From a virus: a stretch of DNA of 26,593 nt. Position 1 is the first letter of the stretch, and the number at the start of each line of letters is the position of its first letter. The stretch lies in the UHGV virus genome UHGV-1483403. One strand, 5' to 3'. Below the pieces are notes generated by a model. The model was not told the origin of the DNA, did not search any database, and was given only the letters and a program-made list of their open reading frames with translations. Shown here in pieces: positions 3,695 through 17,621 of the stretch. A program made the translations under genes and the position numbers.

Positions 3695-3716
3695 TAAAAA
3701 ACCCACCGAAGTGGGC
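3695..3716 (-). terminator. rho-independent terminator (tL1-like) directly after the N-coupled ORF
   Basis: Stem CCCAC/GTGGG (3702-3706 / 3711-3715) with a UUCG tetraloop on the minus transcript, followed by U6 (plus-strand A-run 3696-3701); abuts the TAG stop at 3716-3718. Confidence 0.6.
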
Positions 3717-4054
3717 TATGACCATTTTTTATTTGGATTTCGTTGGTGAGCGTGATTAACAACTCTGTGCATTACATCCTCATATTTTTCATCTTCAATT
3801 TTTTCGACATCGCGAGGAAATGGTGTTGCTAATGCTTTGTCAACTTTGTCCATTGGGTCTTCATTAATCTTATATTCAGGGCCATCATCTATAGCATTAA
3901 ATCCAGGTGTTACACCGTTTTTTAATGCATATGCTATCCTTTTTTCCCATCTCGCTATTCTCCTCCTGTCTCGAGATGTAAGACCTCTATCAGATACTTT
4001 TCTGTTTTGTCCGCGGTCAGGATTAACATAAATAGTCTTTTTCACCATAAGCAT
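3716..4054 (-). CDS. hypothetical basic protein coupled to N (about 112 aa), contains an Arg-rich segment SRDRRRIARWEKRIAYA
   Basis: Track ORF 3716..4060 (TTG at 4060); first ATG at 4052-4054 lies 2 nt after the N stop codon; followed immediately by a strong terminator. Confidence 0.55.
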   Translation of the reverse strand: MLMVKKTIYVNPDRGQNRKVSDRGLTSRDRRRIARWEKRIAYALKNGVTPGFNAIDDGPEYKINEDPMDKVDKALATPFPRDVEKIEDEKYEDVMHRVVNHAHQRNPNKKWS

Positions 4055-4056
4055 AC

Positions 4057-4362
4057 TCAATAAGCACCGTACGGTAGTTTACTGTACAATTTTATTTTTT
4101 GGACTGCATGTATTTTGTTTCCTAATGGGTTTGAATCTTTGTAATAAATACTTCTATTTTTTCGAACGACTTCTTCTTTCTTCTTGCAGCAAAGGCTTCC
4201 TAGCGATGCTGCTTTGTCTGCTCTGACGCAACCAGAGAGCTTTAGCGCAATTTTTCGCGCCAGTGCTTCATTACTGCGTCGCTCGGCAATAAGTTCTGCT
4301 CTGCGAGCTTTGTAGCGGCTTTTTGCCGTACCTTTGGATTCTTTCCAGACAATGGTTACCAT
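4057..4362 (-). CDS. N: transcription antiterminator N, phage-21 type
   Basis: Track ORF 4057..4392; true start is the ATG at 4360-4362 (MVTIVWKESKGTAKSRYKARRAELIAERR...), with AAGGAG Shine-Dalgarno 6 nt upstream. The arginine-rich motif GTAKSRYKARRAELIAERR matches the phi21 N boxB-binding peptide as I recall it. Confidence 0.85.
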   Translation of the reverse strand: MVTIVWKESKGTAKSRYKARRAELIAERRSNEALARKIALKLSGCVRADKAASLGSLCCKKKEEVVRKNRSIYYKDSNPLGNKIHAVQKIKLYSKLPYGAY

Positions 4363-5599: not shown

Positions 5600-5640
5600 T
5601 GCTCTTTAACAGTTCTGGCCTTTCACCTCTAACCGGGTGA
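5600..5640 (+). promoter_or_regulatory. nutR: boxA (TGCTCTTTAACA, 5600-5611) and boxB hairpin (5623-5640)
   Basis: boxA core identical to nutL; hairpin CACCU-CUAACC-GGGUG (one G-U pair) carries the same 6-nt loop CUAACC as nutL on a different stem. Confidence 0.7.
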
Positions 5641-6184: not shown

Positions 6185-7076
6185 CATATCTAATCTAGCC
6201 GAAGCCAGAGAGGCCAGAAGGCTACAACAACCGCATCAAAGCAGCGGTAAGGGGTATGCCTTGCTGCACCGTAAAATTATGGATGTGCCGTTTTACAAGG
6301 ATGCAGAAGCAGCGCATCTGTGGGTTCACTTAATCCTCAAAGCAAAGCATACGCCTGAGTATGTAATGACTGACGCAGGAGAAATTCTGGTAGGCAGAGG
6401 GAAGCTACTTGGCGGTAGAAACTCTCTGGCGTTTGAAACAGGACTCAAACCAGATCGCGTTCAGTACCTGCTTAGAAAGTTCAAAAAACTCGGCATGATT
6501 GACTGGGTTTCACACGGTAAATTCTCAGTTTTCTCGGTAGAGAAATATGACGATTATCAGTCAAATTTTGTACCAGCAGATTACCAGCAAATTACCACCT
6601 CAAAGCCAGCAATACCAATGCCTGTAAGCAATGCTGTACCAGCAGATTACCAGCAAATTACCACAGATAAAGAATATAATAATATTATCTCTAATACTGA
6701 CGTATTAGAGAGTGCCACAGCAGACAAAAAGTCTGACAAGAAAAAACCTTCCGTCAGCTGTCAGGATGTTGTCGATGCTTACCACGAAATCCTTCCTGAA
6801 GCTCCAAGAATCCGCGCACTGAATGACAAGCGTAAAAACCAGATCCGAACGTTCTGGCGCAAAGCCGGAGTGATAACCCGCCAGCTTGACGGGCATGGGT
6901 TCACGATGCAGGACTGGAGAAATTATTTGAGCTACGTTGGCGAAAATTGCCGATGGATGTTCGAAGAGCGCCCAAACCATCAACGCGGAACCGTCTGGCA
7001 CAAAAAGGGATTTGATTTCCTGCTTAACGATAATACCTACCTGAAAGTTCGTGAGGGTGAACACGATGACCGATAA
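6177..7076 (+). CDS. replication initiator, O-like (phage 'replisome organiser')
   Basis: Track ORF; GGAGAAAGG Shine-Dalgarno; position before a DnaB-type helicase; contains an internal iteron plus AT-rich origin-like region encoding a duplicated [10 protein letters not shown] linker. Confidence 0.7.
6569..6700 (+). repeat. putative replication origin: two 30-bp direct repeats built of about 10-bp sub-iterons, followed by an AT-rich tract
   Basis: TGTACCAGCAGATTACCAGCAAATTACCAC at 6569-6598 and again at 6635-6664 (exact); each contains TACCAGCAGA / TTACCAGCAA / ATTACCAC at 10-bp phasing; 6665-6700 is about 80 percent AT. Confidence 0.55.
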
Positions 7077-8502
7077 TTTTTATGCGCCGCCCCATAGCAT
7101 CGAGGCAGAGCAGGCGGTGATTGGTGGATTGCTTCTGGATGATGACAGCAGTGAGCGCGTCCAGAAAGTTCTGGCGATGCTGAAGCCTGACTCATTTTAC
7201 AGCCGGCCACACAAAATCCTTTTCGAAGAAATAACCAGAATGCACCGGGAGCAAAAGCCAGTAGATGGCCTGACGCTTTTCGATGAACTGGAGCGTAAAT
7301 CGTTAATGGCGTCTGTTGGCGGTTTTGCTTATATCGCTGAGATCGCAAAGAACACGCCAAGCGCAGCAAACATCGTTGCCTATGCAATGCAGGTTCGTGA
7401 AACCGCAATGGAACGCTACGCCATCAACCGCATGACTGAAGCGACGGAATTGCTCTATTCCCGCAACGGAATGACTGCAACGCAGAAGTACGAAGCTATT
7501 CAGGCGATTTTCACGCAACTGACAGACCATGCAAAAACCGGATCGCGTCGCGGCCTTCGCTCATTTGGTGAGGTCATGGAAGACTGGGTTAGCGACCTTG
7601 AGAAGCGATTTGACCCGTCAGGCGAACAACGAGGAATGAGCACAGGGATCCCATCGCTGGACAGGATGCTGTCACCGAAAGGTCTGGTGAAAGGCTCTCT
7701 GTTTGTCATTGGCGCTCGCCCTAAGATGGGGAAAACGACGCTATACAGCCAGATGGCAATCAACTGCGCAGTGCATGAGAAAAAGCCCGCTCTGATGTTC
7801 AGCCTTGAAATGCCCGGTGACCAGATACTGGAAAAACTGGTAGGGCAGAAGTCTGGTGTTAACCCGAATATTTTTTACCTTCCGGCGACAAATGACGCTG
7901 ATGACGGCTATCAGGGTGATTACGATGGTGACTTCAACAGGGCGATCGAAACAGCCAATCGCTTGAGTGAAATCGACCTGCTTTACATCGACGACACGCC
8001 GGGATTATCTCTGGCTCAAATCGTCAGCGAAAGCCGTCGAATCAAGCGAGAAAAAGGATGTGTTGGCATGATTCTGGTCGATTACCTGACACTAATGACC
8101 GCTGAAAAGGCCGATCGCAACGACCTTGCTTACGGCATGATCACCAAAGGACTGAAGAACCTTGCCAAAGAGCTTGATTGCGTTGTTGTGCTTCTGACAC
8201 AGCTTAACCGCGCACTGGAAAGCCGAACCAATAAACGCCCATTACCAAGTGACTCACGAGATACAGGGCAGATTGAACAGGATTGCGATTATTGGGTGGG
8301 GATCCATCGTGAAGGTGCTTTTGATGACAGCGTTCCTCCTGGTGAAACCGAACTAATCCTTCGCCTCAATCGTCATGGCAATACCGGCACGGTGTATTGC
8401 ATTCAGGCAAATGGCGCTATTTATGACACAGACCAACAGTCTGCTGAAATGCGCCGCCGTGAACGTGAGGAACCGCAGTCCAAGAAGAAAGGAGGATTCT
8501 GA
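7066..8502 (+). CDS. replicative DNA helicase, DnaB-like (P22 gp12-type)
   Basis: Track ORF 7051..8502; likely ATG at 7066 ([21 protein letters not shown], DnaB N-terminal signature); Walker A GARPKMGKT; Walker B-like ILVDY. Confidence 0.9.
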   Translation: MTDNFYAPPHSIEAEQAVIGGLLLDDDSSERVQKVLAMLKPDSFYSRPHKILFEEITRMHREQKPVDGLTLFDELERKSLMASVGGFAYIAEIAKNTPSAANIVAYAMQVRETAMERYAINRMTEATELLYSRNGMTATQKYEAIQAIFTQLTDHAKTGSRRGLRSFGEVMEDWVSDLEKRFDPSGEQRGMSTGIPSLDRMLSPKGLVKGSLFVIGARPKMGKTTLYSQMAINCAVHEKKPALMFSLEMPGDQILEKLVGQKSGVNPNIFYLPATNDADDGYQGDYDGDFNRAIETANRLSEIDLLYIDDTPGLSLAQIVSESRRIKREKGCVGMILVDYLTLMTAEKADRNDLAYGMITKGLKNLAKELDCVVVLLTQLNRALESRTNKRPLPSDSRDTGQIEQDCDYWVGIHREGAFDDSVPPGETELILRLNRHGNTGTVYCIQANGAIYDTDQQSAEMRRREREEPQSKKKGGF

Positions 8503-8582
8503 TGACCATCTACATCACTGAGCTAATAACAGGCCTGCTGGTAATCGCAGGCCTTTTTATTTGGGGGAGAGGGAAGTCATGA
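8502..8582 (+). CDS. small hydrophobic peptide (26 aa, MTIYITELITGLLVIAGLFIWGRGKS), single predicted transmembrane helix
   Basis: Hand-translated; ATG overlaps the helicase TGA (TGATG) and its TGA overlaps the ninB ATG (ATGA), so it is coupled on both sides. Confidence 0.35.
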   Translation: MTIYITELITGLLVIAGLFIWGRGKS

Positions 8583-9019
8583 AAAAACTAACCTTTGAAA
8601 TTCGATCTCCGGCACATCAGCAAAACGCTATTCACGCAGTACAGCAAATCCTTCCAGACCCAACCAAACCAATCGTAGTAACCATTCAGGAACGCAACCG
8701 CAGCTTAGACCAAAACAGGAAACTATGGGCCTGCTTAGGTGACGTCTCTCGTCAGGTTGAATGGCATGGGCGCTGGCTGGATGCAGAAAGCTGGAAGTGT
8801 GTGTTTACAGCAGCATTAAAGCAGCAGGACGTTGTTCCTAACCTTGCCGGGAATGGCTTTGTGGTAATAGGCCAGTCAACCAGCAGGATGCGAGTAAGCG
8901 AATTTGCGGAGCTATTAGAGCTTATACAGGCATTCGGTACAGAACGTGGCGTTAAGTGGTCAGACGAAGCGCGACTGGCTCTGGAGTGGAAAGCAAGATG
9001 GGGAGATCGGGCTGCATGA
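8579..9019 (+). CDS. ninB: NinB (Orf-family recombination mediator)
   Basis: Track ORF 8561..9019; from the ATG at 8579 the sequence MKKLTFEIRSPAHQQNAIHAVQQILPDPTKPIVV... matches my recollection of lambda NinB. Confidence 0.85.
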   Translation: MKKLTFEIRSPAHQQNAIHAVQQILPDPTKPIVVTIQERNRSLDQNRKLWACLGDVSRQVEWHGRWLDAESWKCVFTAALKQQDVVPNLAGNGFVVIGQSTSRMRVSEFAELLELIQAFGTERGVKWSDEARLALEWKARWGDRAA

Positions 9020-11593: not shown

Positions 11594-11778
11594 ACGCCAC
11601 AATTCAAACGATACCAGAGCTTCTTATCCAGACACGAGGCAATCAGACCGAAGTGGCGAGGATGCTTTCCTGTGCAAGAGGAACAGTGCTCAAGTACAAC
11701 CGAGACAGCAAAGGTGAGCGTCACGTAATAGTTAACGGCGTCCTGATGGTCAAACAGGGCAGGAGAGGAAGACGATGA
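11590..11778 (+). CDS. ninH: NinH-like protein
   Basis: Track ORF; ...GNQTEVARMLSCARGTVLKY...VNGVLMV parallels lambda NinH; overlaps rusA and Q boundaries. Confidence 0.75.
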   Translation: MNATIQTIPELLIQTRGNQTEVARMLSCARGTVLKYNRDSKGERHVIVNGVLMVKQGRRGRR

Positions 11779-12398
11779 GACTCGAAAGCGTAGCTAAATT
11801 TCATTCGCCAAAAAGCCCGATGATGAGTGACTCACCACGGGCTACGGCTTCTGACTCTCTTTCCGGTACCGATGTGATGGCTGCTATGGGGATGGCGCAA
11901 TCACAAGCAGGATTCGGAATGGCTGCATTCTGCGGTAAGCACGAACTCAGCCAGAACGACAAACAAAAGGCTATCAACTATCTGATGCAATTTGCACACA
12001 AGGTATCGGGGAAATACCGTGGTGTGGCAAAGCTCGAAGGAAATACTAAGGCAAAGGTACTGCAAGTGCTCGCAACATTCGCTTATGCGGATTATTGCCG
12101 TAGTGCCGCGACGCCGGGGGCAAGATGCAGAGATTGCCACGGTACAGGTCGTGCGGTTGATATAGCAAAAACAGAGCAGTGGGGGAGAGTTGTTGAGAAA
12201 GAGTGCGGAAGATGCAAAGGTGTCGGCTATTCAAGAATGCCAGCAAGCGCCGCATATCGCGCTGTAACGATGCTAATCCCAAACCTTACCCAACCCACCT
12301 GGTCACGCACTGTTAAGCCGCTGTATGACGCTCTGGTCGTGCAATGCCACAAGGAAGAGTCAATCGCAGACAACATTTTGAATGAGGTCACACGTTAA
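11775..12398 (+). CDS. Q: late-gene antiterminator Q, lambda type
   Basis: Track ORF; 207 aa, MRLESVAKFHSPKSPMMSDSPRATASDSLSGTDVMAAMG... is essentially identical to lambda Q as I recall it; zinc-binding Cys cluster. Confidence 0.9.
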   Translation: MRLESVAKFHSPKSPMMSDSPRATASDSLSGTDVMAAMGMAQSQAGFGMAAFCGKHELSQNDKQKAINYLMQFAHKVSGKYRGVAKLEGNTKAKVLQVLATFAYADYCRSAATPGARCRDCHGTGRAVDIAKTEQWGRVVEKECGRCKGVGYSRMPASAAYRAVTMLIPNLTQPTWSRTVKPLYDALVVQCHKEESIADNILNEVTR

Positions 12399-12440
12399 CA
12401 GCATGATTGCCACGGATGGCAACATCTTTACGGCATGATA

Positions 12441-12476
12441 TTGACTTTTTGAATGAAGTTGGGTAAATTTGACCCA
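12441..12476 (+). promoter_or_regulatory. late promoter pR' with the Q-utilisation region
   Basis: TTGACT (12441-12446), 17-bp spacer, TAAATT (12464-12469); TTGACTTTTTGAATGAAGTTGGGTAAATTTGAC closely resembles lambda pR'. Confidence 0.7.
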
Positions 12477-12504
12477 ACGATGGATAAATGCACTCGTTAA
12501 ATAA

Positions 12505-12533
12505 AGCCCTGAGTTAATAGCTCGGGGCTTTTT
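12505..12533 (+). terminator. rho-independent terminator about 30-60 nt downstream of the pR' start
   Basis: 8-bp stem GCCCTGAG/CTCGGGGC (one G-U pair) with loop TTAATAG, followed by TTTTT (12529-12533). Confidence 0.6.
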
Positions 12534-15998: not shown

Positions 15999-17621
15999 AT
16001 GCCGTTACCATTCCCCTTCGATTTTAAACATCCTGATTACCAGATGGTTTTTGAATGGCGGATGGAACGCTTACAGCGCATTCGCCAGAACCCTGAAATA
16101 TTGCCAGCACTAAAACAGTTTTACCGAACCAACCCGGCTCAGTTCATCATCGACTGGGGCATGACAACGGACCCGCGTAATATTGATTATGGCCTGCCGG
16201 TGACCATTCCGTTTTTACTCTTCCCTAAGCAGGAGGAGTGGATCCACTGGATTATGGAACGCTGGGGTAATCGGGAGAATGGTATTACCGAAAAATCCCG
16301 TGAAATGGGGCTCAGTTGGACCGCGATCGGACTGGCCTGCTCGCTTTGTCTCTTCAACAAAGAAATGGTTATCGGTTTCGGCTCCCGTAAAGAGGAATAC
16401 GTCGACAGCACCGGTGACCCGAAAGCATTGTTCTGGAAGGCGCGCAAGTTCGTGGAAACACTACCTGTAGAGTTTCGCGGTTCGTGGAGCGAGAAGAAGC
16501 ACGCGCCATATATGCGTGTTGAGTTTCCTGAAACTGGTGCCGTTATCAAAGGCGAGGCTGGCGATAATATTGGTCGTGGTGACCGTACCACGCTTTATCT
16601 GGTTGATGAGGCTGCATTCCTTCAGCGTCCTCTGCTGATTGATGCGGCGTTGTCACAAACGACGCGTTGCCGTATCGACCTGAGTTCGGTTAACGGCATG
16701 GCGAACCCGTTCGCGCAGAAGCGTCACGGCGGGAAGATACCGGTATTCACATTCCACTGGCGGGATGATCCTCGCAAGGATGAAGAGTGGTATCGCAGGG
16801 AATGCGAGAAAATCGATAATCCGGTGGTGGTGGCACAGGAACTTGATCTGAACTACAGCGCATCAGCGGAAGGCGTCCTGATTCCATCCGAATGGGTACA
16901 GGCTGCCGTTGATGCGCATATCAAACTGGGTATCCAGCCAACAGGCAAACGACTTGGCGCGATGGATGTCGCTGATGAAGGCAGGGACAAAAATGCCTTT
17001 TCCACCCGTCATGGCTTCCTCCTGGAAAATGTGCGGGAATGGTCTGGTGTGGGTAGCGACATTTATCAGTCCGTCGAGAAGGTCTTCGGTTTTTGCGAAC
17101 AGGACAACCTCGAAGAGTTTCGCTTTGACGAGGACGGGCTGGGCGCTGGCGTTCGCGGCGATGCACGCGCTATCAACGAACTGCGTAACGCTGCGCGCCG
17201 ACCGTCAATACTCGCCACACCGTTTCGAGGTAGTGGCGCGGTATTTGATCCGGACGACGAAGCGGTGCGCGGTGACAACGGACAGGCCGCCCGCCTGAAC
17301 AAGGACTTCTTCGCTAACGCCAAAGCCCAGAGCTGGTGGCGGTTACGTAAACTTTTTCAGAATACCTGGCGCGCCGTGGTTGAAGGTATGGATTACAACC
17401 CGGACGAAATCATCTCAATCAGCAGTAGCATGGCACTCAAAGATAAACTCATCATCGAGCTTTCGCAGCCGACCTATTCCATTAATGGTGTGGGGAAAAT
17501 CGTTATTGATAAACAGCCTGATGGAACCCGGTCGCCAAACCTTGCCGACTCGGTGATGATCAGCTACGCGCCAATGAATTCAGCCCTGAATATCTGGGAG
17601 CTGCTAGGGAGACAGGCCTGA
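15999..17621 (+). CDS. terminase large subunit (ATPase plus nuclease)
   Basis: Track ORF; 540 aa; Walker B-like [10 protein letters not shown]; deviant Walker A region around EKSREMGLS; position between the small subunit and portal. Confidence 0.8.

Follow-up and report, generated by a model that had tools for sequence, protein, structure and literature searches.

The 81-bp segment that joins the helicase gene to ninB in the virus genome UHGV-1483403 (the window, 26,593 nucleotides) is identified by sequence as the lambdoid ninA/tR2 junction element, and its 26-codon ORF as ninA (lambda Orf26). We propose, with a probability of about 0.85, that the tR2 terminator gates the nin and Q genes from within this short translated ORF, which would bridge the terminator and preserve the chain of translational coupling. 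All conclusions on this prophage rest on identity to lambda and on comparison, and the comparative set comprised about 350 related loci. The element lies in the PR operon with the replication genes on one side and the nin and Q genes on the other. Gene order runs cro, cII, an O-like gene, the helicase, the ninA/tR2 element, ninB and further genes to ninH, and Q, with a Q-like gene at 11775-12263. The features on which the argument depends are as follows.

4057-4362, minus strand: N-like antitermination protein (PHROG 271, E = 4.6e-31).
5600-5640, plus strand: nutR-like site, with boxA TGCTCTTTA at 5600-5608 and a boxB-like hairpin, TCACC-TCTAACCG-GGTGA, at 5623-5640.
7051-8502, plus strand: DnaB-like replicative helicase gene, the last replication gene of the PR operon (PGAP: DnaB-like helicase C-terminal domain-containing protein).
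8490-8495, plus strand: Shine-Dalgarno sequence AGGAGG for the ninA ORF, strong and 6 nt upstream of the ATG (direct reading).
8502-8582, plus strand: predicted ninA (lambda Orf26) mini-ORF of 26 codons, also a 'boundary sequence' between the replication and nin modules (exact peptide match to 'NinA protein'; PHROG 5907).
8502-8530, plus strand: 5' part of ninA (codons 1-10, MTIYITELIT), an A/U-rich, unstructured initiation and spacer segment.
8531-8554, plus strand: predicted tR2 hairpin, with 5' arm AGGCCTGC (8531-8538), loop TGGTAATC (8539-8546) and 3' arm GCAGGCCT (8547-8554), from terminator scan and fold.
8555-8562, plus strand: predicted tR2 U-tract TTTTATTT (TTTTTATTT with T8554), from direct reading and terminator scan.
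8563-8576, plus strand: purine-rich Shine-Dalgarno region for ninB, GGGGGAGAGGGAAG, which in the ninA frame reads as the 'basic tail' GRGK.
8579-9019, plus strand: ninB (lambda Orf recombination mediator), the first gene past tR2.

The ORF extends from the ATG at 8502 to the TGA at 8580-8582, encodes MTIYITELITGLLVIAGLFIWGRGKS and is real as originally predicted. Both predicted overlaps are also present: the ninA ATG shares one base with the helicase stop codon (TGATG; helicase TGA at 8500-8502), and the ninA stop overlaps the ninB start (ATGA; ninB ATG at 8579-8581). An ORF of 26 codons is uninformative on its own, as 99 ORFs of at least 20 amino acids occur in 6 kb. Of 120 IMG/VR loci anchored on the terminator, 112 have the same ORF, as do most of 428 matches among phage records; at least six unrelated contexts precede it, and about 13 different ones follow. 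This recurrence across loci and flanking contexts argues that ninA is not a chance ORF. The junction has 3,107 matches in E. coli genomes, and a 701-bp query (8200-8900) matched the prophage of E. coli BR1220 at 100%. A purine-rich motif precedes the ATG by 6-12 nt in every other left-hand context too, and the GGGGGAGAGGGAAG region stays before ninB even where the terminator is missing. PGAP did not call the ninA ORF.

The name of the ORF goes back to the early sequence papers on lambda and P22; the ninA/tR2 feature is real, ordinary and previously described. The exact peptide is listed as 'NinA protein' in NCBI/UniRef (UniRef K7PHM1) and matches PHROG 5907 (E = 1.6e-19, 26 of 27 positions). 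The P22 record (X78401) annotates a 'ninA protein' and 'terminator tR2', Lahn3 carries 'ninA' and 'tR2, early terminator', and phage 434 carries 'lambda Orf26' and a terminator. Sf6 is annotated with 'similar to phage 21 NinA', 'bsq6; boundary sequence' and 'terminator... tR2'. The product is the same 26 amino acids in lambda, 434 and HK106, with the same start and stop overlaps, although in lambda the upstream stop overlaps the ATG by 4 nt (ATGA) rather than by 1 nt (TGATG). P22 NinA differs at two residues (I9V, S26T), and the NinA proteins of 933W and Sf6 (gp45) differ in the last one to three. Pfam returned no match for the 26-residue peptide, PHROG 5907 is without known function, and the literature searched yielded no function for ninA.

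tR2 is a standard model terminator and among the best-studied in molecular biology. Codons 10-21 of ninA form an intrinsic terminator, a perfect GC-rich hairpin followed by a T-tract. A terminator scan placed it at 8531-8562, with an 8-bp stem (six GC pairs), an 8-nt loop and a T-tract; the hairpin folds with a dG of -15.7 kcal/mol (z = -3.6), and 0 of 200 shuffles were as stable. Compared with lambda (NC_001416, 40567-40647), the 81 bp contain a single difference, which is synonymous and lies upstream of the hairpin. Hairpin, loop and U-tract are thus base-for-base those of lambda tR2. The sequence also equals the 'TR2-cut' oligonucleotide and the native lambda upstream sequence given in PMC4824070, and the hairpin is the same as the terminator of transcription templates in 15 papers. 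The lambda tR2 U-tract has been rated 'near-perfect', with 53% termination in vitro (10.1101/453969). In vivo, tR2 efficiency is about 0.9 once an upstream stop codon is at least 30 bp away, and ribosomes near tR2 can repress the terminator almost fully (PMC4824070). We therefore assign 8531-8562, on sequence, to the lambda tR2 Rho-independent terminator. The original prediction had overlooked the hairpin and T-tract within the ORF.

In lambda, RNA polymerase that has not been modified by N mostly stops at tR2, and expression of ninB through Q stays low. The operon described here resembles that of lambda in having the same hairpin, loop and U-tract at the same place, after the replication genes and before ninB, and in having an N-like antiterminator and a nut-like site; it differs in the upstream gene, which is a DnaB-like helicase gene (as in P22, HK022 and Sf6) rather than the P-ren region of lambda. 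We take the nutR-like site to lie just after cro and its boxB-like hairpin to resemble the phage 21-type boxB. By analogy with lambda, unmodified polymerase would stop at tR2 in this prophage. The N-like gene together with the boxA and boxB sequences suggests that N-modified polymerase, loaded at the nutR-like site, should pass tR2, and that the N-like protein is the probable factor permitting read-through.

Across the roughly 350 loci, the hairpin and U-tract are kept, even where the hairpin has been exchanged for another, and so is the ORF start. Changes in the tR2-type stem preserve pairing through G-U; the one exception is a mismatch at its foot. In about 11 of 13 downstream contexts, no more than about 14 nt separate the ninA-frame stop from the start of the following gene, and the two often overlap as ATGA or GTGA. 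The exchanged hairpin is found in loci of the HK97 gp56 type (32 amino acids; many copies are misnamed 'histone H1'). These resemble the element described here in the first 32 nt, in position, and in the frame and overall length of the hairpin and U-tract, and differ in core, tail and the hairpin itself, which has a 10-bp stem (GGGGCUAUU.../...AGUAGCCCUU, dG -12.6 kcal/mol) with variants running from UA through UG to CG. In HK022-type loci, the hairpin directly follows the TAA of another gene, with no ninA start ahead of it. A NinB-anchored scan of species genomes mostly matched lambda DNA contaminating unrelated assemblies; the informative loci were L019, L023, L024 and L027. One of these, the Enterobacter adelaidei prophage (L023), had no plus-strand terminator-like site in the approximately 2.4 kb directly upstream of ninB (the only plus-strand candidates were at 80-98), and the element is therefore not universal.

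Covariation is not a basis for the terminator assignment, which draws instead on identity to lambda tR2 and on the replacement of one hairpin by another. The HK97-type hairpin shows one double-sided change, which is not significant (equaled in 269 of 500 shuffles), and the tR2-type hairpin shows none. An Rfam search of 8300-8800 returned no family even at E <= 1, a result that says little because single terminators are not Rfam families.

What is conserved is not the sequence of the peptide, of which only the N-terminal 10 residues are kept; MT(I/A)YITELITG is retained in a Pseudocitrobacter prophage. Translation of the tR2 hairpin and U-tract in the ninA frame yields the hydrophobic core, GLLVIAGLFIW, which becomes GAIYTVALFYW or GATYTVAFLFE where a different terminator hairpin is present. 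The commonest non-synonymous variant, L13Q, places a glutamine in the middle of the core; it falls in the hairpin loop and is therefore neutral for the RNA. The basic C-terminus noted in the original prediction is present as GRGK, but it reads the ninB Shine-Dalgarno sequence and changes along with the downstream gene. In relatives the tail may be longer, frameshifted or acidic (as in L024, DEDINQRLREAGYL); in L203 the peptide is truncated at W21 by a stop codon directly after the U-tract, and in L248 ninA is fused in frame to the next gene. Loss of the frame in relatives that keep the helicase-ninB junction had been named as a refutation of the original prediction; it is seen for the tail only, where 1-bp deletions in complete E. 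coli genomes shift the last ninA codons. Codons 2-10 carry seq­uence variation with an excess of synonymous alleles, seven against five conservative non-synonymous ones (7/12 versus 26% expected, binomial P about 0.017). Selection may therefore have acted to some degree on the N-terminal amino acids or on their codons.

These observations are best accommodated if ninA is a translated bridge. The first 28-29 nt or so would hold the upstream stop codon far enough away that a terminating ribosome spares hairpin folding; we assign them this spacer role because of the published distance-efficiency curve (PMC4824070), and the 5' part of ninA puts the upstream stop about 28 nt before the hairpin. On read-through transcripts, ribosomes translating ninA would pass the terminator gap of roughly 76 nt and would melt the hairpin that immediately precedes the ribosome-binding site of ninB. 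In lambda, the NinA initiation site is 'not weak', and tR2 loses only about 10% of its efficiency when the ORF is translated (PMC4824070). A bridging role is suggested because the start is conserved and the stop is kept near the start of the next gene, and it is further favored by the HK97-type loci, in which a different hairpin follows the same 5' part in the same frame. The weak covariation statistics, the synonymous excess in codons 2-10 and the placement of both hairpin types in a hydrophobic-peptide frame count against it. The original prediction had offered a 'pure coupling spacer' as its fallback, and this comes close to the best-supported reading, as almost all genomic contexts retain both overlaps and the lambda start site is used (PMC4824070).

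A more elaborate version, which we regard as doubtful, holds that translation of ninA is itself a selected device, in which MTIYITELIT loads ribosomes both to bridge the terminator and to trigger non-stop decay, yielding a combined transcriptional and post-transcriptional switch. On N-antiterminated transcripts, ribosomes would then reach whichever gene recombination had put downstream. On tR2-terminated transcripts they would run off the end, recruit tmRNA and non-stop decay, and lower the level of replication-gene mRNA. An action of the peptide itself in the membrane is more remote than this.

The post-transcriptional half of that idea may also be considered by itself: ribosomes that run off the tR2-terminated 3' end would elicit tmRNA rescue and non-stop decay and thereby reduce replication-gene expression. 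The ninA stop codon lies 18 nt past the T-tract (8563-8580; PMC4824070 counts 16 bp), and every terminated transcript is therefore without a stop codon. In a plasmid assay, expression of the upstream reporter fell by half when the NinA start was present and was restored by mutating the Shine-Dalgarno sequence or AUG, an effect that the authors attributed to non-stop decay (PMC4824070). This is a single reporter result, however, and what it shows could be a side effect on which selection does not act. The L203 stop directly after the U-tract and the absence of any ORF across the terminator in HK022-type phages also argue against such a role, which we consider improbable. Nothing usable emerged from a literature search for a connection of ninA/tR2 with the requirement of lambda-immP22 hybrids for tmRNA.

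The segment may also be viewed as a boundary element, a conserved stretch between non-homologous modules with left breakpoints at 8501/8502 and right breakpoints at 8571-8581. We suggest that the 81 bp serve as a recombination joint ('boundary sequence') for module swapping, because they are nearly identical across phages. Like the lambdoid bsq elements, the segment is short, more than 95% identical, flanked by unrelated genes and bounded by breakpoints at both ends; it differs from them in also being a defined terminator and in containing an ORF. That it might be nothing else, a terminator and conserved recombination linker in which the ORF is an untranslated coincidence, would fit the hundreds of records with homology breakpoints exactly at the ATG and at 8571-8581, the bsq6 label in Sf6 and the omission of the ORF by PGAP. 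Such a coincidence is nevertheless quite improbable given the active lambda start site (PMC4824070), the Shine-Dalgarno motif before the ATG in every left-hand context, a stop that in about 13 right-hand contexts, and also in a second genus, usually remains near the start that follows, and the retention of frame across a replaced hairpin of equal length.

A hairpin enclosed entirely by an ORF that has a strong Shine-Dalgarno sequence recalls the leader-peptide attenuators (trp, his, pyrBI), in which a short ORF likewise overlaps an intrinsic terminator. Ribosomes on ninA might in this way melt or mask tR2, so that translation status would set read-through, and ribosomes near tR2 can repress the terminator almost completely (PMC4824070). 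In the exact arrangement found here, however, silencing the NinA Shine-Dalgarno sequence or AUG changes termination by just 10% or so, since a ribosome that initiates 30 nt upstream is too late to catch up with the polymerase (PMC4824070). ninA also differs from the attenuators in having no anti-terminator structure and no runs of regulatory codons. No alternative pairing that would stably engage the 5' arm of the terminator was found in the upstream RNA (8440-8538), which has unusually little structure (z = +2.26; 199 of 200 shuffles have more). We rejected the attenuator model on the absence of an anti-terminator structure and the small published effect of translation, and judge regulation of this type very unlikely.

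The lambda nin5 deletion, which removes the ninA region, is viable. The original prediction had described a single transmembrane helix, and had raised the possibility of a toxin, an exclusion factor or an inhibitor of host membrane proteins. The uncharged run spans only 15 residues (L8-G22, between E7 and R23), short of the roughly 18-20 that a transmembrane helix needs. A functional small membrane peptide co-encoded with the terminator might be argued from an ORF that is open in nearly all relatives, from the synonymous excess in the N-terminal codons, from translation of both hairpin types in the one hydrophobic-peptide frame, from the active lambda start site, and from an HK022 ORF that uses the ninA start and is again hydrophobic, though it has no hairpin. 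Against this stand the viable nin5 deletion, the short hydrophobic run, a core that is replaced with the hairpin and interrupted by L13Q, a tail that ranges from basic to acidic and may be frameshifted, truncated or fused, a terminator retained in HK022-type phages without the surrounding ORF, and the lack of a Pfam family or a functionally assigned PHROG; the membrane-peptide role is unsupported and the least probable of the readings considered. The literature searched held no data on membrane localization or on a growth or exclusion phenotype of NinA. Most likely the peptide as such serves no function, the hydrophobic core being a by-product of the hairpin and U-tract and its basic tail a by-product of the ninB Shine-Dalgarno sequence.

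As a discovery the element has little value, since the terminator is well studied and the ORF long named. It does carry a caution for genome scans, in that a terminator lying in frame mimics a short, hydrophobic, transmembrane-like peptide. The U-tract reads as Phe, Ile and Leu, the GC-rich stem as Gly, Leu and Ala, and the Shine-Dalgarno sequence as a 'basic tail' of Gly, Arg and Lys. Before a function is proposed for a small 'membrane peptide' encoded exactly between two coupled genes, its coding sequence should be searched for a hairpin and T-tract.

We found a 26-codon ORF at the position claimed by the original prediction, between the genes for a DnaB-like helicase and NinB, and confirmed its overlaps with both neighbors:

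7051..8502, + strand, DnaB-like helicase ORF, stop codon TGA at 8500-8502
8502-8582, + strand, ninA ORF, ATG at 8502 to TGA at 8580-8582, 26 aa (MTIYITELITGLLVIAGLFIWGRGKS)
8579, + strand, ATG start of ninB, overlapping the ninA stop as ATGA

The helicase stop and ninA start overlap as TGATG, and the ninA ATG is preceded, at a distance of 6 nt, by a consensus Shine-Dalgarno sequence (AGGAGG). Small ORFs are frequent by chance (99 ORFs of at least 20 aa in a 6-kb part of the window), and ninA stands out among them because of its conservation.

The original prediction overlooked the key feature of this ORF, an intrinsic terminator within it. Codons 10-21 form, on the sense strand, the hairpin AGGCCTGC / TGGTAATC / GCAGGCCT (8531-8554), followed by the U-tract TTTTATTT. 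The hairpin RNA alone has a predicted folding energy of -15.7 kcal/mol, equalled by none of 200 shuffled sequences. From position 8501 onward, the window is 98-100% identical to the DNA downstream of ren in lambda, 434, 21, and 933W, and to that downstream of the helicase gene in P22, HK022, Sf6, and HK106. Direct alignment to lambda (NC_001416) reveals one difference in 81 bp, a synonymous change in codon 5 (ATC versus ATT). Positions 8527-8560 exactly match the oligonucleotide ‘TR2-cut’ (aacaggcctgctggtaatcgcaggcctttttatt) in the supplement of Li et al. (PMC4824070), which also gives the native lambda upstream sequence (aaagatgaccatctacattactgagctaataacaggcc), and transcription templates printed in 15 papers use the same hairpin as a terminator. 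Sequence identity thus establishes the element as lambda tR2.

ninA is itself a known feature, annotated in several public phage records. The P22 record X78401 has an 81-nt CDS, ‘ninA protein’, enclosing ‘terminator tR2’; Lahn3 has ‘ninA’ and ‘tR2, early terminator’; Sf6 has gene 45 (‘similar to phage 21 NinA’), ‘bsq6; boundary sequence’, and ‘terminator, homology to phage lambda; tR2’; and the curated 434 record has a CDS ‘similar to lambda Orf26’ with a terminator within. In the phage L genome paper (PMC8022706), ninA is one of the nin genes named for lambda and P22, and these genes are described as chained by ATGA stop/start motifs. PGAP leaves ninA without annotation in E. coli genomes. 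The peptide exactly matches a deposited ‘NinA protein’ and matches PHROG 5907, a family without known function; there was no Pfam match for the peptide and no Rfam entry for the element.

We compared four sets of related loci, anchored on NinB, the terminator, the 5′ part of ninA, and an alternative hairpin. NinB matches at 99% identity also occur in Pseudomonas, Oceanobacillus, Shewanella, Bradyrhizobium, Psychrobacter, Paenibacillus, and other assemblies (loci L005-L018 and others); these contigs are ~48.4 kb or tiny and low-coverage, and look like contamination with phage lambda control DNA. Across 24 haplotypes of tR2-type hairpins, stem changes are C-to-T transitions facing G that retain a G-U pair, the sole exception being a mismatch at the second pair from the stem foot, and the six inner pairs are intact in all 24.

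An equally common junction element, the HK97 gp56 type (e.g., loci L039, L057, L240, and L024 1234-1340), keeps the first 32 nt and then carries a different hairpin (GGGGCUAUU-UACAC-AGUAGCCCUU; -12.6 kcal/mol) with its own U-tract. Its variants run from U-A through U-G to C-G at one pair and from U-G to C-G at another, with 100% of cells paired; with so few counts, this covariation is not significant (269 of 500 shuffles match it). HK97 gp56 (32 aa) is named ‘histone H1’ in many NCBI records, evidently a mis-annotation.

HK022-type loci (HK022 itself, 811-1530 of locus L115; also L052, L121, L173, L183, and L192) carry, precisely between ninA codon 9 and the hairpin, an inserted gene for a 203-aa HNH_3+AP2 protein, apparently a homing endonuclease. 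In these loci the hairpin comes immediately after the TAA of the endonuclease gene, without a preceding ninA start, and the ninA start begins a 34-aa hydrophobic ORF.

The proposal that ninA encodes a functional membrane peptide is not supported, as the core, the tail, and the frame after the U-tract vary among relatives. The core changes with the hairpin (GLLVIAGLFIW, GAIYTVALFYW, or GATYTVAFLFE), and the most frequent replacement, L13Q, falls on the first loop base. Tails include WGRGKS, WGRGK, WGRVNRG, CGRGKCG, WGRGKHG, CGGEK, and, in a Pseudocitrobacter prophage, the acidic LDEDINQRLREAGYL. Locus L203 has a stop at W21, L243 has an additional T in the U-tract, and in L248 the ninA ORF is in frame with the following gene.

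Across the loci compared, the frame is conserved at its start and usually at its stop. Its end is shifted in 14EC047 and MLI121, two complete E. coli genomes that retain the helicase-ninB junction. Here, independent 1-bp deletions downstream of the U-tract yield an ORF of 31 codons that extends into ninB out of frame. The deletions in these genomes (L260 and L261) and in locus L035 affect G/A runs in the stretch from the U-tract to the ninB ATG (GGGGG to GGGG, GGGAAG to GGGAG) and bring the ninB Shine-Dalgarno sequence one base nearer its start codon. They could be either genuine variants or sequencing errors in homopolymers.

On these comparisons the peptide is not conserved, unlike the hairpin and the translational frame at both ends. 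The hydrophobic core and basic tail are most simply read as an in-frame translation of the hairpin, U-tract, and ninB Shine-Dalgarno sequence. A hydrophobic reading of the hairpin is not inevitable, since one of the three frames across it contains a stop and another is polar. Nor does in-frame reading explain the conservation of the N-terminal ten codons: codons 2-10 have 7 synonymous versus 5 conservative non-synonymous alleles, against an expected synonymous share of 26% (binomial P ~0.017).

The alternative of a pure coupling spacer is broadly right in that the start and stop frame is kept. The left-hand contexts (helicase, ren, P22 gene 12, and several others) all end on or beside the ninA ATG, each with a purine-rich motif 6-12 nt upstream of it. 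On the right, the next gene starts no more than ~14 nt from the ninA-frame stop in about 11 of 13 contexts, often with an exact ATGA/GTGA overlap. The ninA ORF is most plausibly the first link in the nin ‘chain of interlinked genes’, through which ribosomes would be handed from the replication gene over the terminator to the next start.

In vivo, lambda tR2 terminates ~90% of transcripts when the upstream stop codon is at least 30 bp away, and far fewer at shorter distances (PMC4824070). The lambda NinA start site is active, and silencing it changes termination by only ~10%, because a ribosome initiating 30 nt upstream cannot catch the polymerase (PMC4824070). NinA ribosomes on transcripts ended at tR2 meet no stop codon; expression of an upstream reporter was halved, for which the authors invoke non-stop decay (PMC4824070). 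In the window, the hairpin begins 28 nt downstream of the helicase stop. The RNA of 8440-8538 (+ strand; helicase 3′ end and 5′ part of ninA) has unusually little structure (z = +2.26; 199 of 200 shuffled versions are at least as stable), which points to selection to keep a translation-initiation or hairpin-nucleation region open, and folding of this segment revealed no anti-terminator alternative upstream of the hairpin.

The window also encodes a Q-like antiterminator and the following elements:

3716-4054, - strand, Nun-like transcription termination factor gene (PHROG 5632, E = 4.5e-71), directly downstream of the N-like gene
4057-4362, - strand, N-like antiterminator gene (PHROG 271, E = 4.6e-31)
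5600-5640, + strand, nutR-like site just downstream of cro: boxA TGCTCTTTA, then a boxB-like hairpin, TCACC-TCTAACCG-GGTGA

The boxB-like loop presumably resembles the phage 21 type. Genes for tRNA-Asn and tRNA-Thr lie between the Q-like and holin genes (17156-17311 of locus L262; approximately 12355-12510 in the window). As the Nun-like gene adjoins the N-like gene, the prophage may combine an antiterminator with a terminator protein of the exclusion type. Given the N-like gene, the boxA/boxB-like site, and the Q-like gene, the logic of lambda most likely applies here by analogy: early transcripts would stop at tR2, and N-modified polymerase would read past it into ninB through Q.
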